From the IMG/VR virus record IMGVR_UViG_3300025387_000066, positions 1-25,583 of that record: a stretch of DNA of 25,583 bases. One strand, written 5' to 3'. Under the pieces are notes generated by a model. The model searched no databases, had not been told where the DNA came from, and saw only the letters and a list, made by a program, of their open reading frames with translations. The translations under genes were made by a program, and so were the position numbers. The stretch comes from a virus. Taxonomy: Duplodnaviria; Caudoviricetes. Every line of letters begins with the position of its first letter. The stretch's first letter is position 1. Of the stretch, positions 1-14,406 are shown in pieces.

Positions 1-3000
1 AACTTGCCTTAAAGGTCCAGTTTGTTGATTTGTTTGTTGAGCATCAGATTGTATTTCTTCAATAACAGCAGAATTAGGTTTTGTTTGTAACATTGATTGA
101 GATAAATTTTCACCAGGTTTATCTGCATTTAATATGGATGCTCCATCGGGGGTCATTGTACCCCGAAAATGACCTATGCCGTTATTAAAATTGCTGAAAT
201 GTTTATATAATTTATCATAATTGGGATGTGAAACGCCCATTTCAAAATAATTTTCCCGCAAAGATGGATTGTCTTTATCGAAAACTAATCTTTGAACATT
301 TCGATATTTAGGTCTTTTGATAACATTTGAATTACCAAACTGATCATTTAAGTGATCAATTTGTTCATTGTGCATATTAGTTAAATTATTTCTTGCTTGA
401 TTTAATTTGCTATTATATTGAGCAAAAAATTCAGGATATTGTTCTGGATATCTAATCACAGCAGCAGTTGTTTGCGTATTAAAATCATCGGACATTCTTC
501 TCAATTGTCTAAAATTATTTATTCCATACCAATGAGATAAAAAATATTTTACTTGAACTGGCAAAGTTATAAATTCATTTGCAGAATTTTGTGCAAGATT
601 AAATCTATCTATCATATCAGGTGTTTTAATACTATCGTCAATATAATCTCGTGATGATAATTCATTTAACAATTTATTATAAAATGAATGTCCTGCATCT
701 TTTAATACTTTAGAAGCTACAAATTGTGGCAAATTTTCATATTGGCTATTAAAATAATCATCTATATCGCCTTTAGCCTGATCATAATTTTGCATATCAA
801 GCGGTTCTTTATTATATTGTGATGCAGGCATATTATTGGCAAAATCATCTTTGCTCACTGTTGGCTTGTCAGCGAACTGAGATTTAATTTCTTCTAAACT
901 ATCAGGTGTAAATCCTTGCTTACCTTTAAGCTGATTTATAAAACTATCCACAGTTTGAACATCTGGGCCTTTTAAATCTTCCGCCTTTACGGATGGGCGT
1001 AAATTTAAATTACCTTCAGGATCAATTTGGCTGTAAGAAGTTTTTGATGTTTCAGGAATATTTGTCGTTGGTAAAGGTTCAGGTTCTTCAGGTATTTTAC
1101 TTAATGCTTTATCAACAATAGGAGTATTATTAATGATAGGCGCTTCTTCTTTAACTGCTGGAATATCTCCAGTTCTGCCTGTTTCAATTAATGCACTTTG
1201 CCCTAATGAATTTAAATCACGTTGCAGTTTATTTACATCTGTTTCATCAGCGCCTGTCGCTTCACCATAAGTTCCAGCTATTGCACCTGATGTTCCACCC
1301 ACAAGAGCATTAATTCCCCTGCCAGCCAAAGATATTGGCGTAGCCACGGATTGATAAATACCTTGGGCAATATTTAACGGCATTTCTAAATATGGATATT
1401 GTTTAGATATATCATCAATTTTTTGCTGATCTTCTGGATTATAACCTATTGGTTGGCTTCCAAATCCAGCACTTGCACCGCTTTGTATCCGTTCAGATAT
1501 AGGTTGTTTGTATTCCGTAGCACCTTGATCCATTTCTTTTTTGGCATCACTAATTTGCTGTAATGCCGTATCTAAGTCAGGATCACCTGTTGGCTGATAA
1601 TCACCAGCAGTTGGTGTATCCGCTGGATCTGTAACAGTGCCGTCTGTGGCGTAAGCTTTACGCAAAGCATGATTAATCATCCCGCCAGATGATACACTAA
1701 ATGCTTGATTAACAACAGATCCTCCAGAAGCAAAACGCTTGGAATATTCAATTCCACCAGTAAAGTTATGTGTTTTTGGAGTATAATTTCCAAACAAGTT
1801 TAAATTGCTGTCAGCATTGTTTTTGCCAAATGTAGCACCATACATTCTTCCAGATGGTGTATCACCAAATTGAGCATTGCTACTTATGTCGCTGTCATTA
1901 TAGCCAAAAGATGCGATATTAGATGAACCCGATTGAGAATTGCTCAATGGCGTTTGTCGTGTAAATGATGTGTTGAATTTTGGCGATAATTGTGCGCCCA
2001 ATGTAGTATTAAACATTGGATAAAGAGAAGCACCAGAACTTTGTTCTATTGGATTAACAGACCCAAATGATGCAGACAAATTGCCGTCAGACAGAGTAGC
2101 GTTTGTGTTATATTGATTTAAATTACCGCTAAATAAATCTTCTTTAGGCATTGAATTAGCTGTTAAAAGAGCATCACGAACAATTTTATCTTGATTAGAT
2201 AAATCTGCTTCTGGTGTTCCACCAGACGCATATCCTTGCCCCATACCTTGGCTGATTGCTTTATTTTGCAATAGTTTGCGTTGTGCGTCTGTTAATCCGC
2301 CAGCCCATGAACCGCCTTGCATACCGACCTTATCACCACCAAGGTCAAGGTGCATAATATCAACAGCTCCATAAGGGCCACCAAACGGATGTGTTTTGCC
2401 TGAAAAATATCCGCCCCAACGCAGCTGATCGTTTAACTCAGGATACATTTGCATTTGGGCTTTGCGAGCCGATTGAGCAAATTGTTCATAAGTTCTGAAG
2501 GCTGGCAAGTTTTGATAATTGTTTAAAACGTTGCCATTGGCATCGGTAATTTGAAAATCAACTGCTTTACCCTGCCCATGAAAACGAGGATCGCCAGCAC
2601 GATAACCAGACGTTAGTTGAACGCTGTAACCCTCTGGCAGGGATTTAGATGCCTCGTTGTAAATATCAATTAAACGTGGATCAACGCCCTTGACATTAAC
2701 GTTTTGTGGCGGAGGAACAGTCGAGCCACCTTGCGGAGCAGATGCAGGCGGCGCTTGAGTTGATGTATCTGTAGTTTCATCGCCTAAATTAGACGGCCTA
2801 ACGGGAGGCAACGGCACATTATTTGGCGTTGGATTGGGGATAACTTCTGGAGGAATAAGTCGTGGATTTGTGTTGCTATCAACGTCAGAATTTCCGTTAA
2901 GTATTTGATTTGAAACAGCTAATGCTTTTTGCAATTGTTGATCAGCACGAAAGAAATCAGCAGAACTATCAGGATTACCCCAATCAATACCATACAAACC

Positions 3001-3489
3001 AATATTTTGTTGGGTACTAGGAACAGGGGTATCTAGATCAATTAAACCGCCATCATAATAACCAACACGCCCACCACGCTTTTGCGTATTGGTTGATGTC
3101 GTTTCATCTTTTTTGGCAGCAGGCTTACCAGCCGCAGGCGTAGGCGTTGGAGCGGGTGTCGATGGCGTAGGAGCCGCAGGGCCAGCCGCCACAGAAGGAG
3201 CCGCCTGTCCAGCAGCAGGGGCTGACAATCCGCTAATATCTGGCTGAACGGAGCTAGGTGTGCCAGGCGTTTGCATCGCCGATGGTTTTGCCACAGAGGG
3301 AGCTATTCCCATCGGCAAAGATGTAGGTAACCCACTGTTATTTAATGAAGATTGACTGGCTGCGTCGCCATAACCTAACAAGCTATTGGCATAAGCAATT
3401 GGATCAGATGTATCACCCCCGTCAGCATAACCACCTCTTGCCATGCGTTTAGCAAGTAAAATGGCATGGAAGATCGGGTCATTTTCCAT
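1..3489 (-). CDS. Large multi-module (polyvalent) putative virion/ejected protein with M15 peptidase domain; 3'-truncated by window edge (>=1163 aa)
   Basis: Hand translation: ATG at 3489 overlaps the portal stop (TAATG) and the frame has no stop down to position 1. It begins MENDPIFHAILLAKRMARGGYADGG and ends ...IEEIQSDAQQTNQQTGPLRQV. It is probably absent from the ORF track because it lacks a stop codon. Confidence 0.92.
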   Translation of the reverse strand, partial: MENDPIFHAILLAKRMARGGYADGGDTSDPIAYANSLLGYGDAASQSSLNNSGLPTSLPMGIAPSVAKPSAMQTPGTPSSVQPDISGLSAPAAGQAAPSVAAGPAAPTPSTPAPTPTPAAGKPAAKKDETTSTNTQKRGGRVGYYDGGLIDLDTPVPSTQQNIGLYGIDWGNPDSSADFFRADQQLQKALAVSNQILNGNSDVDSNTNPRLIPPEVIPNPTPNNVPLPPVRPSNLGDETTDTSTQAPPASAPQGGSTVPPPQNVNVKGVDPRLIDIYNEASKSLPEGYSVQLTSGYRAGDPRFHGQGKAVDFQITDANGNVLNNYQNLPAFRTYEQFAQSARKAQMQMYPELNDQLRWGGYFSGKTHPFGGPYGAVDIMHLDLGGDKVGMQGGSWAGGLTDAQRKLLQNKAISQGMGQGYASGGTPEADLSNQDKIVRDALLTANSMPKEDLFSGNLNQYNTNATLSDGNLSASFGSVNPIEQSSGASLYPMFNTTLGAQLSPKFNTSFTRQTPLSNSQSGSSNIASFGYNDSDISSNAQFGDTPSGRMYGATFGKNNADSNLNLFGNYTPKTHNFTGGIEYSKRFASGGSVVNQAFSVSSGGMINHALRKAYATDGTVTDPADTPTAGDYQPTGDPDLDTALQQISDAKKEMDQGATEYKQPISERIQSGASAGFGSQPIGYNPEDQQKIDDISKQYPYLEMPLNIAQGIYQSVATPISLAGRGINALVGGTSGAIAGTYGEATGADETDVNKLQRDLNSLGQSALIETGRTGDIPAVKEEAPIINNTPIVDKALSKIPEEPEPLPTTNIPETSKTSYSQIDPEGNLNLRPSVKAEDLKGPDVQTVDSFINQLKGKQGFTPDSLEEIKSQFADKPTVSKDDFANNMPASQYNKEPLDMQNYDQAKGDIDDYFNSQYENLPQFVASKVLKDAGHSFYNKLLNELSSRDYIDDSIKTPDMIDRFNLAQNSANEFITLPVQVKYFLSHWYGINNFRQLRRMSDDFNTQTTAAVIRYPEQYPEFFAQYNSKLNQARNNLTNMHNEQIDHLNDQFGNSNVIKRPKYRNVQRLVFDKDNPSLRENYFEMGVSHPNYDKLYKHFSNFNNGIGHFRGTMTPDGASILNADKPGENLSQSMLQTKPNSAVIEEIQSDAQQTNQQTGPLRQV
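2335..2700 (-). other. Peptidase M15 (T5-endolysin-like L-Ala-D-Glu Zn-peptidase) domain inside the large ORF
   Basis: Motifs in the canonical order: GVDPRL, LTSGYR, HGQGKAVD (H-x6-D), LRWGG, DIMHLDL (D-x-x-H). Confidence 0.8.
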
Positions 3490-5795
3490 TACTGCACCGA
3501 GTTAGGCGTCGTTGGTAGCAATGAAGGTTCATTAGCTTCCAAGCGGTTTATCATATCTCCATGTAGCAGATTTTGCATTAGTGGGATAGCTTGTGGATTA
3601 GCAGCCATATCTTCTGCCAACTTAACAGCTGCTAAACGCTCACGGCTTTCACGATCACGCTTTCGGTTAATGGCATCAAGAACGGCATCCTGAGACTTTT
3701 GCTGCATTTCTTGCTGTTCAAGTTGCATCCTTGCCAACTCAACAGGGTCAACTGGCTTTTGCCCATTCTGACCATTTTGAATTTCGTTTTGCATTTGTGC
3801 AGCTTTTGCTTGAGCCATCATTGTCTTAGCATCAGCTTCTTGTTTCTTGATTTGAAGCTCTGCCATAGCCTGCTTCATTTGCGGAGGCATCTGGCCTTGG
3901 GTTTGCGGAGGAGCCATGAACTGCTCAGGGTTGCTCCAGCCAATAGCCTGCATAGCAGCCGTGTCAATCGCAATAGGATCGTACATGGTTGGGTTTTGCT
4001 GTTGCAGTTGTTTCAACGCCATAATCTTCATCAGGCGTTGGCTATGGCTTGATGTATTAGGATCAGCTTGTGGCTGAAGGTCAAAGTTTTCCAAAGCCTG
4101 CAAGAATGTTTGTTCATCCCATTCCATAGCTGGCTTGCGATTGCGTTGCCAGAAGCTCTCTGGATGCTCTTTAAAGCACTCAACAAGCAGGCGAAATTCC
4201 TCTGCCTGAGAAGCGTGCATCCGCTTATGAACGCTGTTTTCAATTTTTGTGGCCTGATCAATCATAGCCAGCGTTGTGCCTACAGCGGCGTCAGCTCGGC
4301 CCTCACCGACTTGCTGTTCAGATGTGCCACCGATGCGCATACCTGTTTGAGCCATATCCTGAACCAAGGCAGCAAGCGTGCTGGATGGCTCTTTATAGGG
4401 CAGGTTCATGATCGCTTGGTTGATCGGCATACCACCAGTTTTAACAAGAGCAGCTCCGCCTGGAGGAATACGAAAGATATTCGTATTCTGTCTAGCTCCC
4501 GTGTCCGCCATAAGGAAACCGGGAAAATTCGCATACATACCTGCGTCAAGAAGCTCACGCCACGCAGCAGTAACTGCATTGGTCGTATTGCCCAATATAT
4601 GCAAAAGTCCAATATCATAAAAACCCATGCCAGGAACGTATGTGTATTTGACGAAGTTTGAACGGGCTTCTGGTAGCTCTTGATCGTCTTCATCATAGTT
4701 CCTCACAATTGATAAAATTTCCTTAGAGGAAACGTCAATCGTCACACGATATGGAATTTCCAGACCGCTTTCTTTACCCTTATACTTATGTTCAAAGCCT
4801 TGGATGTCCAATTCACAATAGCACTCGTAAATTTCACGATCACGATCATCAGGGTTTTTTGTATCCAATTGGATACCCTGCTGATCCATTTTCTGGCGCT
4901 GTACGGCATCCAGCTTGGGCATAGCCGCCTGATGCAAATCAATGTCACGATAAACGCCGAGAATTTGAAGACGCTTAACTGTGCTTGGCTTCATGTACAC
5001 ACGATGTGTAATACGGCGTGCATTACGCAAATCAGTAGCTGCGTTGTTAACGATCAAGTCGTCAGCATCCACAGTTTCAGATACAGGGCGGTTTCTTAAT
5101 GGGCAGAAGTAAATTTTCTTAAAAGCTGTCCCACCAAAACCGAGCATAAGAAGCATACGATCTGTGTCTGGATAATACTCAGACGCCACGCTGGTCAGGT
5201 AATGGTTTAAATCCCGCTCCAGCGCACTCGCAAGCTGGTCCTCCCCCAAATAGGCATTATTATCGTCATTGCGGATTTTAACTGGACCATCCGTAGGAAG
5301 CATTTCACTACGAGCATTAGCCTGAAAACGAAGAACAGCCTCTAGCAATAGTGGGTGTCGGACTTTTGACATACCCTCGACAGGTGCTCCGTCAGATGCC
5401 CCTGCCAGATTAGGAAGCTCTACCTTCAAGCCTAAAAGTTTAATGCCTTGCGCACGATCCTCAATCCACTCTTTACGGCTATCCAAATCGTCTTGAATAC
5501 CCCGTAACAGTTCAGAGCTAATACGATTAAGCTCCAAACTATCAATCTCATCAACCAGATTGTCGAACCACCCCTTCGACGACTTTTGATCGCCTTCTTC
5601 AATTGGTCTGCCGTCCAAGGAGATAGTAATTGACCCATCGCCATGCTCTATCTCCAAAACGTTGCCTTTAGTATCAAAAACTGGCTGGTCGCCGTTTTCA
5701 ACCATTTCAATTACTACATCATCGGCAGAGGGCATTGGCTCTGCTTCAGGAGCTTCTTGGCGTATAGATGGCGTAAGGCCAGGAACTAAAGGCAT
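3489..5795 (-). CDS. Portal protein (P22-like, 768 aa)
   Basis: Size, HPLLLEAVLRFQA...GPVK segment, GFGGTAFKKIY, PGMGFYDIGL, a Q-rich coiled-coil C-terminus, and position downstream of the terminase. Confidence 0.88.
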   Translation of the reverse strand: MPLVPGLTPSIRQEAPEAEPMPSADDVVIEMVENGDQPVFDTKGNVLEIEHGDGSITISLDGRPIEEGDQKSSKGWFDNLVDEIDSLELNRISSELLRGIQDDLDSRKEWIEDRAQGIKLLGLKVELPNLAGASDGAPVEGMSKVRHPLLLEAVLRFQANARSEMLPTDGPVKIRNDDNNAYLGEDQLASALERDLNHYLTSVASEYYPDTDRMLLMLGFGGTAFKKIYFCPLRNRPVSETVDADDLIVNNAATDLRNARRITHRVYMKPSTVKRLQILGVYRDIDLHQAAMPKLDAVQRQKMDQQGIQLDTKNPDDRDREIYECYCELDIQGFEHKYKGKESGLEIPYRVTIDVSSKEILSIVRNYDEDDQELPEARSNFVKYTYVPGMGFYDIGLLHILGNTTNAVTAAWRELLDAGMYANFPGFLMADTGARQNTNIFRIPPGGAALVKTGGMPINQAIMNLPYKEPSSTLAALVQDMAQTGMRIGGTSEQQVGEGRADAAVGTTLAMIDQATKIENSVHKRMHASQAEEFRLLVECFKEHPESFWQRNRKPAMEWDEQTFLQALENFDLQPQADPNTSSHSQRLMKIMALKQLQQQNPTMYDPIAIDTAAMQAIGWSNPEQFMAPPQTQGQMPPQMKQAMAELQIKKQEADAKTMMAQAKAAQMQNEIQNGQNGQKPVDPVELARMQLEQQEMQQKSQDAVLDAINRKRDRESRERLAAVKLAEDMAANPQAIPLMQNLLHGDMINRLEANEPSLLPTTPNSVQ

Positions 5796-6235: not shown

Positions 6236-7255
6236 GTGGCGGAAACTATCATGATATTATCTTCTGAAGATATAGAACAATTACTCAAAAGGTTCGGTTC
6301 TAAAAACAAAGTAAGCAGGTATTTAGGGTTCCCAGAAAGTACGCTTAGAAGCAAAATTAAATTCAATAGAGAAATCCATGTATCAGACAGCTTGAAAGAG
6401 ATGTGGGCATTGGAAGAAGAAGTTAAGTCGCTCAAGAATGTCATCGAAAACATACAGAAAGCAAAATCCTTAAAGCCAAGGTATATTGCTGGCAGGGAAG
6501 ACGCAACGAGGGTTGTTGCTATTGGCGATATACATGACCAGCCCAATATGGACAAAGAACGATTTACATGGATTGCTCGTCATTGCGCCGAAACCCGACC
6601 ACATAGAATTATACAAATTGGCGACTTCTGCTCATGGGATAGCGTATCAACCCACGAGCCTATTGGCTCACAAGGATATGCTCAACGCCCAAGCTTTAAG
6701 AACGATCTTGAAAGCTGTGAAGAAGCAATGCGAGCTTTCTTAAAAGAAATCAATGGTTTAGATATACACATGGAGCTAATTGCTGGCAACCATGAAGATC
6801 GTATCAACCGATTTGAGAACAAATCACCTGAGACTGCTGGCTCTCTTTATATGCAGTTTGAAGAAATCTGTGCACAATATAGATGGCGTCTGCATGACTA
6901 TGGTCATTGGCTTTTTGTTGATGGCGTTGGCTTTACCCATGTACCCAAAAACATTATGGGCAAACCCTTTGGTGGACAAAACTCTGAAAATTCAATAGCT
7001 AACCACGCAACTCACTCAATTGTGTTTGGACATACTCATCGGGCAACCTTCCGAAAAGCTCCCAAGATTGGCATCAACAACAGCATTGAAGTCCTTAATC
7101 TAGGCTCTGCAATGCCTGATGGCTATGTGGCTAAGTATGCAGGAACGGCTACAAGCGGATGGAGTTATGGTATATTCGATCTATCCATCAAGTCAGGCCA
7201 TATTGTTTCTCATCGTTTTATAAATATGGCTGAACTGAAAGAAAAATACTCATGA
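6236..7255 (+). CDS. Calcineurin-like metallophosphoesterase with N-terminal HTH/coiled coil
   Basis: Motifs GDIHD, IGDFCSWD, GNHEDR, FTH and FGHTH. The N-terminal segment SKNKVSRYLGFPESTLR is HTH-like. Confidence 0.88.
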   Translation: MAETIMILSSEDIEQLLKRFGSKNKVSRYLGFPESTLRSKIKFNREIHVSDSLKEMWALEEEVKSLKNVIENIQKAKSLKPRYIAGREDATRVVAIGDIHDQPNMDKERFTWIARHCAETRPHRIIQIGDFCSWDSVSTHEPIGSQGYAQRPSFKNDLESCEEAMRAFLKEINGLDIHMELIAGNHEDRINRFENKSPETAGSLYMQFEEICAQYRWRLHDYGHWLFVDGVGFTHVPKNIMGKPFGGQNSENSIANHATHSIVFGHTHRATFRKAPKIGINNSIEVLNLGSAMPDGYVAKYAGTATSGWSYGIFDLSIKSGHIVSHRFINMAELKEKYS

Positions 7256-10833: not shown

Positions 10834-12474
10834 TCAGACTGGGTAAAGCGGAACTGGCGGTTTGCCCCAATTTTTCTTACTAGCTTCTAATTCTTCAGCA
10901 AGTTCAGTTGGCCTTTGCAATAGCCCAGTTTGTCTAATGTGGCTCATAGCAATGCTGACTGTATCGACCAAGTCATCATGTGCGCCCTTGGGGAATGATG
11001 CGACTTGCTCAATTACCTCAGTGCTCCAAGACATCTCAGGTGCAAATACCAGCCCCTCCGCAAATAGATGCTGGACGGCATATAGGCGGCTTACCTTATC
11101 TTTGCCCTTACCCTTGTAATCTACGAGCTGGACGGCAAACTCCTCCGCTCCGTAAACACGCCGCAGCTCCTGAGACACGCTTATACCTGCTGCTTTAGCC
11201 TCAATAAGCAGTTTATCTATATTAAATTGCTTGGATGTCTTTTGTACTTTCTCTACTAAATCGTGGAACTGCAACCGAGCTTGCCATGCGCCGATCAGCA
11301 TAACCCTCGGCGACATCTGACCATAGCTACGCTCGACCTGCATTGTCCTACCATCTTCGCCAATAATACGAGATGATTTGGCTGTTATGTCATGCTCAAA
11401 GACGCCCCAAATAGACATAGCCGAAAAGTCATTTTCTTCCTTTTCCGTATATGCCGTATCCAAGGCTGCCACAATATAAGAAAACGGAGGGTATTCTGAT
11501 GCTTCCCATAACTTCCACCAATCGCTGTCAATGATACCACCGCCCTTTGGAACGGGTAACTGCTGCAACTGACCAGCGGCAGCAAATGGGCCGAGGTTAG
11601 TCTCAAGGTTCTTAACTTCTTCCTCCCCGAAGCGTTCAGGCCAGAGCAACTCACCCTCTTGAGTTCTCCAGTCTGACCAACCAATACTAGTTGTATAGCT
11701 TCGGGAAGGACTGAAACGCATCGGCAAGCACAGATGCGTCCATTCTTCAAAGTTCTTACTCATCAAATAACCCGTCAGATCACGCTCCGACAGTCTTTGC
11801 TGAATAACGACATAAGCGCCAGTCTTGGCATTGTTAAGGCGGGTTGATAAGGCGCCTGTCCACCATTCAATTGTGCTTTCAATCGTAGCATCAGAATAAG
11901 CTTCCTGTGCTGCGTTAGGATCGTCAACGATAATAATATTACCGCCTTCACCCGTAAGAGCCGAGCCCACAGACGTTGCCAGCCTCGACCCCTTCTTGTT
12001 GTTATCGAACCTGCCTTTAGCTGCTTGGTCAGGCATGAGCTGAAAGCGATCACCCCAATGCTTCTGATACCATTCGCTGGTAATCAAACGCCTCATCTTC
12101 AGGTTATCACGCAAACTCAATTGTTGCGCAAAGGATGCCGTTAGGAATTGAACGCCTGGTCCCGATGTATCAGACAATTGGCTTTGCGCCCACGTCCATG
12201 CAGGCCATGCCACACTTGTTAAGCTGGACTTAGCACAGCGTGGGGGAATGTTGATGACTAGTTTCTTAATCTGACCATCAGTCACAGCCATCAGATGCTC
12301 GGCAACGGCCTCAATGCAATTCCCGTCCACGAATGGAGAACTGTCAATGTACTTCCACGCCTTAGTCAGAAACTCATAAAGGCTTTCTTCACAGTCTTCC
12401 TTCTCGATCTCCTGCAATGTTTGATCGGGGTATTCCGTAATTAGCGTCTTTATGTAGCTGTCAAGGTCTAGCAT
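10834..12474 (-). CDS. terL: Terminase large subunit
   Basis: Walker A NIPPRCAKS, Walker B IIIVDDP, QQRL, nuclease motifs ALDTAY and FPKGAHDDLVD. Confidence 0.95.
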   Translation of the reverse strand: MLDLDSYIKTLITEYPDQTLQEIEKEDCEESLYEFLTKAWKYIDSSPFVDGNCIEAVAEHLMAVTDGQIKKLVINIPPRCAKSSLTSVAWPAWTWAQSQLSDTSGPGVQFLTASFAQQLSLRDNLKMRRLITSEWYQKHWGDRFQLMPDQAAKGRFDNNKKGSRLATSVGSALTGEGGNIIIVDDPNAAQEAYSDATIESTIEWWTGALSTRLNNAKTGAYVVIQQRLSERDLTGYLMSKNFEEWTHLCLPMRFSPSRSYTTSIGWSDWRTQEGELLWPERFGEEEVKNLETNLGPFAAAGQLQQLPVPKGGGIIDSDWWKLWEASEYPPFSYIVAALDTAYTEKEENDFSAMSIWGVFEHDITAKSSRIIGEDGRTMQVERSYGQMSPRVMLIGAWQARLQFHDLVEKVQKTSKQFNIDKLLIEAKAAGISVSQELRRVYGAEEFAVQLVDYKGKGKDKVSRLYAVQHLFAEGLVFAPEMSWSTEVIEQVASFPKGAHDDLVDTVSIAMSHIRQTGLLQRPTELAEELEASKKNWGKPPVPLYPV

Positions 12475-12727
12475 CGTTGATTTGCCGTTTCTTTGGCAGG
12501 GTGCAGAACTTCTCCCCGCTTGCCTTATCCATCCAGATTTCTAATGTCAGTCCATATTGGTGTCGTGGGTCATCTGTAAATAACAAGTCGCCGTTGGGCA
12601 TTTCATAGGCATAGCCAGCATCACTGTCATATTCAGGACGCTTGAGCCAGCCAAACGTGTGGTAGCTGGCTTTCGACAGGAATACGGCATCATTCTTCTT
12701 CATCGTCATCTTCATTTCCTGCCCCAA
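12461..12727 (-). CDS. Hypothetical protein between terS and terL (true start probably nearer 12703)
   Basis: Fills the gap and overlaps both neighbours. Confidence 0.6.
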   Translation of the reverse strand: MGQEMKMTMKKNDAVFLSKASYHTFGWLKRPEYDSDAGYAYEMPNGDLLFTDDPRHQYGLTLEIWMDKASGEKFCTLPKKRQINDARP

Positions 12728-13148
12728 CCTTAGCCGACATAATTAGTTCTTTAAGCATTGCTCGTTGATCGGCATCGAACTTCTTAACGTCTATTTTGAA
12801 TGTCCCCTCAATAGGCCCACCATTAGCGCCAGTTATTTCGGTCTTATTAGTCTCAGACCAACGGCCCCGTGTTTTCATCCAGAATATAGCAGCGGGAACA
12901 GCTCCCGGCTTATTGCTTGTTGCTATACTGTAGAGGTTAGAAGCCACAGCCATGTTAGCCATGTCCGTGCCAGTATCTAACTCGTCACGGAAATGCTTCC
13001 GAAGCGTCTCGTCAGAAACGCCAATGATCTTACCAATATTAACCTGCTGGATGCCCATACCTGCCATCATCCGAACTTGCTTTCGCTGTTGCTCGGTTGG
13101 CTGGAATGGAGCTGGGCCTCTTTTACCCCTCTTTACCATGTCGTTCAT
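12690..13148 (-). CDS. terS: Terminase small subunit
   Basis: N-terminal HTH (IGVSDETLRKHF), AAIFWMKTRGRWSE and EITGANGGPI; lies upstream of terL. Confidence 0.82.
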   Translation of the reverse strand: MNDMVKRGKRGPAPFQPTEQQRKQVRMMAGMGIQQVNIGKIIGVSDETLRKHFRDELDTGTDMANMAVASNLYSIATSNKPGAVPAAIFWMKTRGRWSETNKTEITGANGGPIEGTFKIDVKKFDADQRAMLKELIMSAKVGAGNEDDDEEE

Positions 13149-14406
13149 TTTTCATCTCATTAAATGTTCTGCCATCACCATCTAGAATGGCTTCTTGTCC
13201 AGTGAACTCTTGCCACCGCTTAACAATAACATCTACATATCTAGGGTCAAGCTCCATTAAATAAGCGTAACGACCATTTTTTTGCGCTGCAATAAGTGTT
13301 GTTCCAGAACCACCAAAGCTATCCAATACAATATCTCCACCCTTTGTATTGTTAAGCATTTGATATTCAAACAAAGCAACGGGTTTCATCGTAGGATGTT
13401 CACCATTGCGAGATGGTTTATCAAACTCAAGAAGCGTCGTTTGTTTTCTATCGGCTGCCCACAAATGTGAAGAACCTTCTTTCCAACCATATAGGCAAGG
13501 CTCATGCTTCCATTGATAATCTTGACGCCCCATGACCATAGTGGACTTAGCCCAAATTAAACATTGTCGAATTTTCCACCCAGCATCAAAGCAAGCTCCT
13601 CGGAAATTATATCCTTCACTATCAGCGTGCCAAATATAAAAAACAGCTCCAGCTTTCATAACTGTATCAGCAGCCACAAAAGCATCTCTAAGGAATTGTC
13701 TAAAACTTTCGTTGCTCATTGAGTCATTTTTAATTGTTAAGGCATCTTTAGTTTTACCTTCATAAGCAACATTATATGGAGGGTCAGTTAACCACATATC
13801 AACTAGACAATTATCCGTTAATCTTTGAATATGATCTATACTTGTACTATCACCACAAAGTAGGCGGTTTTTACCCATTATCCAAAGATCGCCTTGGACA
13901 GACACGGGGTTTTCAGGCGCTTCAGGCACTTCGTCTGGGTCGGTCAATCCCTCGGTCTTATCAGCCAGCAATCCCTCAAGCACCTTGCCGTCAAAGCCAA
14001 TAAGGTCAAGGTTGAAGTCCATACCTGCCAAATCTTTAAGCTCAACCGAAAGCAGGTCATTATCCCAGCCAGCGTTCATAGCCAGCTGGTTATCCGCCAA
14101 AACGTAAGCCTTCTTTTGCGCCTCAGTCCAGCCAGTTGCCGTCATTACAGGCACTTCCTTTAGACCAAGCTGACGAGCAGCCATCACACGCCCATGCCCA
14201 GCAATGATTTGCCCCGTCTCGTCAACCAGAACAGGCGATGTCCAACCCCATTCCTTGATAGACGCCGCAATCTGAGCCACCTGAGCATCGCTATGGGTTC
14301 TAGCGTTCCTTGCGTAAGGTATTAGTTTATCAATAGAAATTCGTTCAACCTTATCAGCAGGCCATCTTTCTTTTATAGACCCAACAGTTTTATCTGAGCT
14401 TGGCAT
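13123..14406 (-). CDS. ParB-like N-terminal domain fused to N6/N4 DNA methyltransferase
   Basis: PYARNARTH, IIAGHGR and LADN (ParB/Srx fold); TDPPYN, HPTMKP and LDSFGGSGTT (beta-class MTase). Confidence 0.93.
   Translation of the reverse strand: MPSSDKTVGSIKERWPADKVERISIDKLIPYARNARTHSDAQVAQIAASIKEWGWTSPVLVDETGQIIAGHGRVMAARQLGLKEVPVMTATGWTEAQKKAYVLADNQLAMNAGWDNDLLSVELKDLAGMDFNLDLIGFDGKVLEGLLADKTEGLTDPDEVPEAPENPVSVQGDLWIMGKNRLLCGDSTSIDHIQRLTDNCLVDMWLTDPPYNVAYEGKTKDALTIKNDSMSNESFRQFLRDAFVAADTVMKAGAVFYIWHADSEGYNFRGACFDAGWKIRQCLIWAKSTMVMGRQDYQWKHEPCLYGWKEGSSHLWAADRKQTTLLEFDKPSRNGEHPTMKPVALFEYQMLNNTKGGDIVLDSFGGSGTTLIAAQKNGRYAYLMELDPRYVDVIVKRWQEFTGQEAILDGDGRTFNEMKNERHGKEG

Follow-up and report, generated by a model that had tools for sequence, protein, structure and literature searches.

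Directly behind the portal gene of a tailed phage (Caudoviricetes), known from the IMG/VR contig IMGVR_UViG_3300025387_000066, lies the start of a giant gene whose first 1,163 codons we have analysed together with the entire contig (25,583 nucleotides; henceforth the window). Sequence comparisons place the encoded chain, here called the giant, in the class of phage polyvalent proteins, and its modules are separated by a conserved peptide unit composed of a short helix and a di-glycine (GG) motif. These joints are very probably the borders of cassettes. On balance, we favour a reading in which a polyvalent chain encoded after the portal, with its conserved joints as module borders and exchange points, is likely packed into the head and ejected, the joints likely serving as processing or docking points. 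The two genes that define the setting are:

1..3489, minus strand: giant open reading frame, the first 1,163 codons of a polyvalent multi-module protein (open reading frame listing and translation)
3489..5795, minus strand: portal gene (PF23899 SU10_portal, E 1.2e-16; phrog_1216, E 3.9e-35)

The frame of the giant contains zero stops, leaves the window at its start, and has its 3' end beyond the contig. Since the window is the complete IMG/VR contig, which is rated 45% complete, it is the end of the contig that truncates the gene. The start codon of the giant (ATG) and the stop codon of the portal gene (TAA) share bases in the string TAATG. An initial annotation of this DNA had claimed an open frame of at least 1163 codons that is translationally coupled to the portal; re-translation confirmed the frame, and direct reading confirmed its overlap with the portal gene. 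The large terminase subunit is encoded at 10834..12474 and the small subunit at 12690..13148 (PHROGs). A scan of viral contigs found five close loci, and in locus L004 the relative of the giant is 92% identical and complete at 1,710 amino acids (aa) (L004:4153-9285, protein P0002). From the window and L004 the gene order of this phage type is terminase-portal-giant-scaffold-like protein-capsid-adaptor; the head module of L004 comprises the giant, a basic 467-aa protein, a GroES-like gene, an acidic coiled-coil scaffold-like protein, the major capsid protein and an SU10-type adaptor. The GroES-like co-chaperonin gene (L004:11025-11441; Cpn10 E 1e-6, phrog_3188 E 3e-11) sits between the basic protein and the scaffold-like protein.

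The recurring unit consists of a short helix of the form h-h-[N/D/H]-x-A-[L/F], a few residues, and then [Y/F]-A-x-G-G. It forms the N-terminal header, every joint and the C-terminal tail, and the giant can be laid out as follows (model confidence as predicted local distance difference test, pLDDT):

3415..3489, minus strand: header, aa 1-25, a helix PIFHAILLAKRMA and then RGG-YADGG (helix predicted at 5-17 with low confidence)
3085..3414, minus strand: Pro/Ala/Ser-rich linker, aa 26-135 (P 0.16, A 0.19, S 0.15; mostly coil, pLDDT <30)
3046..3084, minus strand: joint 2, aa 136-148, QKRGGRVGYYDGG (homology blocks of 5 relatives start at 134-145)
2701..3045, minus strand: block aa 149-263, LIDLDTPVP.. 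and then a Pro-rich stretch (conserved with the peptidase in compact relatives)
2233..2700, minus strand: M15/LAS-type zinc peptidoglycan peptidase domain, aa 264-419 (fold and invariant H/D/H)
2218..2232, minus strand: joint 3, aa 420-424, YASGG, directly at the end of the peptidase domain (block ends; P0076 breaks exactly here)
1735..2217, minus strand: module aa 425-585, a helix and then a Ser/Asn/Gly-rich stretch (composition; missing from variant P0076)
1639..1734, minus strand: joint 4, aa 586-617, two tandem helix-plus-GG units (motif count; tail profile match at 584-601)
1120..1638, minus strand: block aa 618-790 (common to L005/P0004, P0007 and P0150)
1096..1119, minus strand: helix unit without glycines, aa 791-798, IVDKALSK (pattern match at 791; cargo switch point of P0004)
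1..1095, minus strand: block aa 799-1163 and beyond (mostly helical in a low-confidence model; homologs P0007, 35% identity, P0150 and P0194)

The copies of the unit in the window are PIFHAILLAKRMARGG-YADGG in the header (aa 5-25), KRGGRVGYYDGG (137-148), YASGG followed by IVRDALLTA (420-444), the tandem copy FASGG-SVVNQAFSVSSGG-MINHALRKAYATDG (586-617) and the glycine-free helix at 791-798. P0002 has, in addition, a double unit at 1256-1287 and the C-terminal end YEHGG-SVVNHALSVSS..RQLKRGRP. The motifs listed in the initial annotation (MARGG/YADGG at 16-25, KRGG..YYDGG at 136-148, YASGG at 420-424, FASGG at 586-590, VSSGG at 599-603 and YATDG at 613-617) are all found at these residues, and so is the composition of the Pro/Ala/Ser linker. 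Its choice of xxGG as the recurring motif was right in so far as this motif is enriched, but the true unit is longer, a helix plus xxGG, of which only the GG part had been noticed. The region 425-585, on the other hand, had been taken for a beta-rich module, a description that is not supported by the two models, both of which have pLDDT <50 there.

Against 5,000 shuffles of the giant, and with patterns chosen after seeing the data, [YF]xxGG occurs 4 times (0.68 expected, P 0.004), [YFM]xxGG 5 times (0.85 expected, P 0.002) and hydrophobic-x-x-GG 8 times (2.29 expected, P 0.002); two of these last eight sites (LRWGG 356 and LDLGG 381) are conserved motifs within the peptidase domain and not joints. 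The helix pattern was seen 3 times in the window (0.02 expected) and 5 times in P0002 (0.03 expected), counts that 0 of 5,000 shuffles reach. A profile built from the C-terminal tails of relatives alone matches the giant at aa 584-601 (E 8e-4, as read from L003, which equals aa 1-1067 of the window at 100% identity), and also residues ~1256-1272 of P0002 (E 2e-6) and internal sites in L073 (E 0.02) and L015 (E 0.06). At the level of sequence, the internal copy found with this tail-only profile is independent support for the enrichment of the motif.

Some further observations concern the unit itself. The C-terminus of the portal protein (window 3489-3600, minus strand), ..LMQNLLHGDMINRLEAN.., resembles the helix unit GGMINHALRKAY of the giant, a resemblance that may be due to chance. 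The extreme C-termini of the tails read ..KRGRP, ..RRGRP or ..PRGRP in P0002, P0003, P0004, P0080 and P0093 and ..QPGRG in P0077 and P0079; we presume that such RGRP/GRG ends are AT-hook-like and may touch DNA. Double-glycine bacteriocin leaders, which are processed by C39 peptidases, have hydrophobic residues at positions -4/-7/-12/-15. We considered and rejected this analogy, as the hydrophobic register of the helix misfits the pattern and no C39 match was seen.

Further evidence on the nature of the joints comes from their position. A phmmer search of the giant against 222 other fetched proteins gave 163 matches in 156 proteins. The peptidase homology block has median limits of 264-419, with 116 of 141 block ends falling in 408-430 and thus bracketing YASGG at 420-424. 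Five larger homology blocks start at 134-145, i.e. at the second joint, and other limits lie at 599, 610 and 787-808; the relatives P0077, P0078, P0079, P0080 and P0093 align to the giant from ~135-145 to 425. In the model of the compact member P0079 the confident fold stops at the RYANGG joint and pLDDT is <50 right after it, while header and tail appear as isolated helices. That the motifs mark the borders of different blocks, as the initial annotation had it, is therefore upheld by homology-block limits that fall at the joints.

The joints are also the sites where closely related proteins differ. At least five architectures occur among proteins that are 84-99% identical in their shared parts, and all are broken at joint units. 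P0003 and P0081 correspond to P0002 residues 1-1271 joined to 1674-1710, the ADP-ribosyltransferase (ART) module being absent, and in P0076 residues 1-424 continue directly with the part from 1271 onward. In P0122 the 586 joint leads straight into the linker at 1284, and another ART-PolyVal domain is present. In P0004 other cargo follows the helix unit at 778-788, and L005 aligns with P0002 only as far as residue 788. The window carries one extra 13-residue unit at 590-602, within joint 4, that is missing from P0002. P0081 is 93% identical to aa 1068-1163 of the giant and ends 144 residues later with a tail. On the DNA level, 47-nucleotide direct repeats flank the ART cassette of L004 (7918-7964 and 9172-9218, 85% identity), and a 38-nucleotide direct repeat links the joints at 586 and 1270 (L004 5914-5951 and 7963-8000, 82% identity). 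Both repeats encode joint units.

None of the 1,163 residues of the giant matched a family in Pfam or PHROGs, and Pfam searches with pieces of it gave matches at chance level only (DUF4866, E 0.03; T3SS_ATPase_C, E 0.1). Its relatives are more informative. L005/P0004 resembles the giant over the first ~800 residues and continues with an LPD23 domain (71.4 bits, cut-off 27) and an HExxH module; ART-PolyVal exceeds its cut-off of 31.2 bits in P0122 (78.7 bits) and P0077 (92 bits), and P0002 has a match to this domain at 1384-1434 with 24.6 bits. Most of the 73 matches in a set of 5.8 billion proteins carry ART-PolyVal (PF18760, precomputed annotation) or LPD domains. Polyvalent proteins of phages and conjugative elements were described by Iyer, Burroughs, Anand, de Souza and Aravind in 2017 (PMC5512222), and that paper includes the proposal that they are processed by embedded metallopeptidases. 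The giant lies among virion genes together with the portal-terminase packaging genes, a setting that agrees with the one used to recognise this class. Because its relatives possess ART-PolyVal or LPD domains, and because the gene order fits too, we assign the giant to the polyvalent proteins on grounds of sequence, although the 1,163 residues in the window hold the M15-like peptidase as sole recognised enzyme domain and no signature polyvalent domain.

For the last block, aa 799-1163, neither Pfam and PHROGs nor the Protein Atlas gave a lead. When residues 790-1255 of P0002 were compared with the Protein Atlas, the best scores (0.80-0.82) belonged to unnamed viral clusters without structure. 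The string IEEIQSD (aa 1141-1147) was considered as a decayed HExxH akin to HEIQH of L005 and discarded, as BLASTP does not align the two regions with each other.

Header, joints and tail are common to relatives of ~30-60% identity. A header like that of the window is also present in P0006, P0007, P0005, P0077, P0079 and P0093. The compact relatives (P0077, P0078, P0079, P0080 and P0093; 419-902 aa) share the header/joint/tail plan with small gaps: the header is, for example, ..ANALYIARHMNRGGYLAGG, the modules are split by [Y/F]-A-x-G-G, and the tail reads ..GGAIADRAIMLLSKKAKRQPGRG; P0080 begins within the header, at MNRGG. In polyvalent proteins of ~30-40% identity the motif brackets the ART-PolyVal domain, as in P0010 with ..PRYQDGGRVG..IRAYHGSPH and ..EIVRRYARGG. 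We further collected 76 loci of the phage clade by means of the adaptor protein and inspected the gene upstream of the basic 467-aa protein or its counterpart. In diverged loci, 11 distinct upstream proteins end in a similar tail, GG plus xxRALxLxS; in the alignment of these tails the GG is invariant and the A-L pair nearly so, and the aromatic residue is kept while its neighbours vary (five further rows of the survey were spurious overlapping frames). In L023, L046 and L049 the basic protein is preceded by a gene whose end resembles a portal barrel, and the giant is absent; judged by these gene orders, portal and basic protein can do without the giant between them, which makes it an optional insert. 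The conservation of the motif at module borders thus holds down to ~30% identity. Together with the class assignment and with near-identical phages that differ by whole modules cut at the motifs, it supports the modular cargo cassette envisaged in the initial annotation.

An exhaustive HMMER search with the giant yielded 866 proteins (602 at E <=1e-10), nearly all of which match aa 265-420, often inside tape-measure-length proteins. Among 50,697 records of cultured phages, 5 match, all via the M15-like domain (Rhizobium and Mesorhizobium phages) and 4 of them at a gene annotated as tape-measure protein; no sequence match was found in these records outside that domain. A pattern of H, D and H (H-x6-D and a later H) is invariant across a 42-member alignment. 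H175, D182 and H247 of P0079 correspond to H304, D311 and H380 of the giant, as counted from the sequences, and the latter three are the predicted metal ligands. The model of P0079 reaches pLDDT 89-98 over the peptidase domain, and its Foldseek matches (E 4e-5 to 8e-3, probability 1.00) are led by the M15 L-alanoyl-D-glutamate peptidases LysECD7 (8q2g, 4.3e-5), ChiX (5opz, 2.4e-4) and that of RB49 (8.8e-4), with Ply500, LysB4, EndoT5, hedgehog N-domains, VldE and VanX further down. By sequence, the domain is remote: Pfam gave no match for aa 255-420 at E up to 10, the peptidase region found only VldE (9fln) in the PDB (E 0.03 as a single sequence, 1.7e-4 as a profile), and a PDB sequence search with P0002 returned only low-complexity matches (p53, PRAS40) and VldE. 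Owing to the Foldseek matches and the invariant H/D/H, the M15 label given in the initial annotation is right in fold and active site, even though Pfam has no match; from sequence and model, the domain appears to be a distinct subfamily without a Pfam model. Relatives swap the wall hydrolase, with SLT in P0007 and Phage_lysozyme2 in P0078. A separate endolysin is encoded in this phage type at L010:9965-10714.

The GG motif is not confined to the giant. We counted [RKYFWM]xxGG gene by gene and compared the counts with shuffles (1,000 for the gene of the 467-aa protein). The giant has 5 copies (1.56 expected), P0002 has 9 (2.48 expected), the portal has 1, and the other 44 window genes have 6 per 6,349 residues. 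The richest carrier is the gene after the giant:

L004:9307-10710, also L005:7548-8269 and at least 20 other loci: basic repeat protein after the giant (467 aa, isoelectric point (pI) 10.4)

It holds 11 copies of the motif (2.47 expected; 0 of 1,000 shuffles reach this count) in the form [F/K/R]-[K/R]-x-G-G-[K/R]-[A/V], and a Pro/Met-rich end. It keeps the same genomic place across the clade, where 27 of 3,323 open reading frames, in 25 of 81 loci, pass P <1e-3 with at least 4 copies, the long ones having 10-18. The protein has at least 2,461 relatives, all without name or Pfam domain. Conceivable roles are those of a substrate for cleavage, a multivalent docking protein and a DNA binder of the RGG-like kind. 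A 123-aa His/Lys-rich protein of the head-to-tail module (L004:15473-15844; H 0.15, K+R 0.20) has 5 copies (0.79 expected). The scan across phage genes proposed in the initial annotation hence shows enrichment in the giant, the next gene and this 123-aa protein, and a sparse distribution in the other window genes.

Precedents for the unit are found in tape-measure proteins. Linares et al. 2023 (PMC10038345) place the cleavage of T5 pb2 directly behind R1127, with a hydrophobic stretch on one side and the muralytic motif on the other. In the T5 record the cut site reads NSFVPR|AEGGMMYPG, and since [YFWMRK]xxGG occurs just twice in pb2, simple arithmetic says that a random cut would hit one of the two motifs about once in 100 times. 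In the giant, likewise, an [R/Y/F]-A-x-G-G (YASGG) borders on a muralytic module, standing directly after the peptidase. In lambda gpH, FATGG occurs at 733, YATGG at 778 and MRDGG at 842. According to a paper on gpH (PMC12617516), ~14 kDa are removed from a glycine-rich region, the exact site and the catalysis being stated there as unknown; on this description all three motifs fall in the glycine-rich cut region. The same source reports that gpH 818-849, a helix ending in MRDGG, is resolved as a trimer on the hub protein gpI. The paper on DT57C (PMC10713586) describes a like trimeric C-terminal helix in T5-like phages, 80alpha and lambda, and states that an alignment of C-terminal fragments gave no conserved motif. 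With the T5 pb2 cut and the gpH helix bound to gpI, there is a single precedent each for cutting and for docking of the helix-plus-GG unit. The last residues of T5 pb2, ..AFRDAVELALNENGTTLKSLGNS (L007:20122-23781, minus strand), resemble the tail of the giant's family, ..VVNHALSVSSKNGSTLPD..; such sequence likeness hints that this tail and the hub-docked tape-measure helix may be related.

We did not find the unit described in the open literature; subscription journals and supplements lay outside the search. The strings YADGG, YAEGG, YAKGG, YASGG, YQDGG and FADGG had no phage context among the matches listed. For tape-measure cleavage motifs, only the DT57C paper was relevant among the matches listed, and for capsid targeting and packaged or polyvalent proteins none was. 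The main text of PMC5512222 contains neither 'glycine' nor 'linker' and describes no shared header, joint or tail peptide, and the paper on Sulfitobacter phage GT1 (PMC10386132) has nothing on cleavage, proteases or polyvalent proteins. What is known is therefore the polyvalent class; what we have not found in print is the header/joint/tail code and its link to tape-measure maturation.

In the course of infection that we favour, the giant would be packed in the head beside the portal and leave through the tail, as the ejection proteins of SU10 do. Its peptidase would open the peptidoglycan, and cargo modules, e.g. the ADP-ribosyltransferase of relatives, would act inside the cell. Header and tail helices may dock or bundle the chain, for which the tape-measure C-terminal helices in the tail hub are the precedent; by this analogy we regard a docking role of the helices as evenly poised. 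Like T5 pb2, the giant may be cut at some [Y/F]-A-x-G-G joints, either autocatalytically or by an activity of the host, and not by a phage protease. Because no protease family was found among the genes scanned in the window and its relatives, cleavage is unproven, and real cleavage at some joints, argued from the same tape-measure analogy, is to be put at slightly under even. A role in docking or as an address accounts for the conserved helix beside the glycines, and for the placement at the extreme termini, no less well than cleavage does.

The initial annotation had gone further and proposed that a dedicated phage protease cuts the giant at xxGG in the head into separate effectors. Adenain, pS273R of African swine fever virus (ASFV) and ubiquitin-like proteases are GG-directed in this way and cut after GG. 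An enzyme of this kind would agree with a motif that is enriched, conserved and placed at module borders, with the 11 copies in the next gene and the 5 in the 123-aa protein, as a substrate set would have, and with the one T5 tape-measure cut that maps inside the motif. Yet searches with 28 of the 46 window open reading frames (PHROGs, four also Pfam; the other 18 are all <=103 aa), with 11 head-module genes of L004 (Pfam and PHROGs), and with 9 tail/lysis genes of L010 and 2 L004 genes (PHROGs) gave no match to a protease family; these gene sets together span terminase to lysis of this phage type. The suggested search for a protease gene beyond the window thus came back empty for the L004 head and L010 tail/lysis genes. 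The L004 head module contains the scaffold-like protein and the GroES-like gene, and a prohead protease was not found in it. Moreover, the T5 cut R|AEGG precedes the glycines, unlike cutting after GG, and 15-20 conserved residues beside the glycines, also at the termini, exceed what a cleavage determinant needs. A highly diverged or new kind of protease, or one encoded outside the sequenced DNA, could have escaped these scans. We consider a dedicated phage protease improbable. Alternatively, the units might never be cut and would act as address labels by which the chain, like the multi-copy basic protein, attaches to a partner in the virion (candidates are the capsid interior, the scaffold, the portal channel or DNA), so that bracketed cassettes are loaded and lined up for ejection. 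Header and tail are indeed kept at the extreme ends whatever the cargo, the 10-18 copies in the conserved basic protein are what is expected of multivalent binding, the C-terminal helices of T5 and DT57C and gpH 818-849 are docked as trimers in the tail hub, and the tail is basic (pI 9.8) with an RGRP-like end while the scaffold-like protein is acidic. However, such a partner is so far hypothetical, tape-measure proteins and head cargo share the motif without a common structural partner, and the tail and header helices are predicted at only pLDDT ~50-60; we judge such uncut labels a minority possibility. A third view would reduce the units to flexible linkers and recombination scars, where DNA repeats promote exchange and the peptide is functionless. 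The 47- and 38-nucleotide repeats that flank cassettes, and the fact that all seen rearrangements break in them, would be accounted for, but the peptide is conserved at 30-40% identity and in the lambda and T5 tape-measure proteins, whose DNA has long diverged, and the aromatic, the GG and the helix A-L are kept while neighbours vary. Since Y/F, GG and A-L persist where DNA and neighbouring residues diverged, purely passive linkers are quite unlikely.

Several points weigh against the reading we prefer, that of a head-packed polyvalent chain with processing or docking joints. Packaging, ejection, docking and cleavage are all steps that we infer. The protein of the window lacks its own C-terminus, any cargo past residue 1,163 being outside the contig, and in the closest full-length relative the signature polyvalent domain stays below the cut-off (24.6 versus 31.2 bits). 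With three clade loci lacking it, the giant is dispensable. The whole-protein model of the giant (8-row alignment) is poor, with a mean pLDDT of 34, and usable only at aa 264-360, so that the placing of the borders depends on homology blocks and on the model of P0079. The motif patterns were defined post hoc, and [YFWM]xxGG enrichment is not general: among 75 proteins, the observed count was reached by <=2% of shuffles in only 13, five of which are the window's protein and near-identical variants. The T5 cut is a single mapped site that lies before and not after GG, with Arg where this phage has Tyr/Phe, and in most tape-measure proteins with the same peptidase domain no [YFW]xxGG stands directly after the domain.

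To our knowledge, how tailed phages choose, load and release injected proteins is largely unknown outside T4, P22 and T7. The unit described here marks module borders, recurs 10-18 times in a neighbouring protein and coincides with the T5 cut, and it thus offers a mutable handle. More speculatively, phages in general might use helix plus [Y/F/R]-A-x-G-G to mark proteins bound for passage through the tail, one peptide acting as address label and joint and as a site cut by the protein itself or by the host, with modules traded by recombination at the unit; we think this rather doubtful. If it were true, tape-measure proteins (T5, lambda) would have the code in common with polyvalent cargo packed in the head, and bracketed modules would be loaded, ejected and released. 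The unit opens a test of whether ejected proteins have a common processing or loading signal, with the prediction that the cut in lambda gpH lies inside FATGG 733 or YATGG 778. Should the unit work as a label, foreign proteins that carry it could be packaged in phage particles.

Other genes of this phage type deserve mention. At window 13123-14406 (minus strand), directly upstream of the small terminase gene, a ParB-like nuclease domain is fused to a DNA methyltransferase (phrog_498, E 1.5e-174; phrog_620, E 3e-58). A metallophosphoesterase gene with a possible N-terminal helix-turn-helix (window 6236-7255, plus strand; phrog_221, E 7e-35) is transcribed away from the portal gene and is portal-adjacent also in L004 and L005. 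The major capsid protein is 84-94% identical over most of the clade (L008-L083, e.g. L008:6770-7681), the adaptor only 43-66%, and the clade capsid protein is thus under unusually strong constraint.

Among known systems, the M15 L-alanoyl-D-glutamate peptidases of the LAS superfamily share with the giant the fold and the H-x6-D ... H triad. Identity to them is only 15-24%, and the domain of the giant is embedded in a virion protein instead of being a free endolysin. The capsid-targeting sequence of T4 is a terminal peptide processed by gp21. Both it and the GG-directed viral proteases resemble the present case in the use of a short glycine determinant at the borders of virion-internal proteins, and a terminal peptide could target and be removed here as well; the differences are that a cognate protease was not found among the genes scanned, that the mapped T5 cut lies before the glycines, and that the motif comes with a conserved helix. 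Kuravirus SU10 has related portal and adaptor families. According to PMC9509320, its ejection proteins (gp20-24) are carried in the head and released before the DNA, and they include a cell-wall hydrolase. This hydrolase, gp20, is a transglycosylase, whereas here an M15-like peptidase is found inside a far larger mosaic chain.

Among the tape-measure proteins compared (T5 pb2, lambda gpH and that of DT57C), pb2 and gpH have in common with the giant [R/Y/F]-A-x-G-G, which in T5 is cut within the motif and beside the muralytic module; many tape-measure proteins, moreover, carry the same M15-like domain at 50-60% identity and are also ejected through the tail. In contrast to the giant, which is encoded beside an SU10-type portal in the head module, they are tail-lumen proteins of long-tailed phages. 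The polyvalent proteins, too, are giant multi-domain chains of mosaic architecture among the virion genes of portal-terminase phages, and the relatives of the giant share their ART-PolyVal, LPD23, zincin-like HExxH and peptidoglycan hydrolase domains. The window's variant shows no embedded zincin, and what is conserved in the present family is not the domains but the joints between them.

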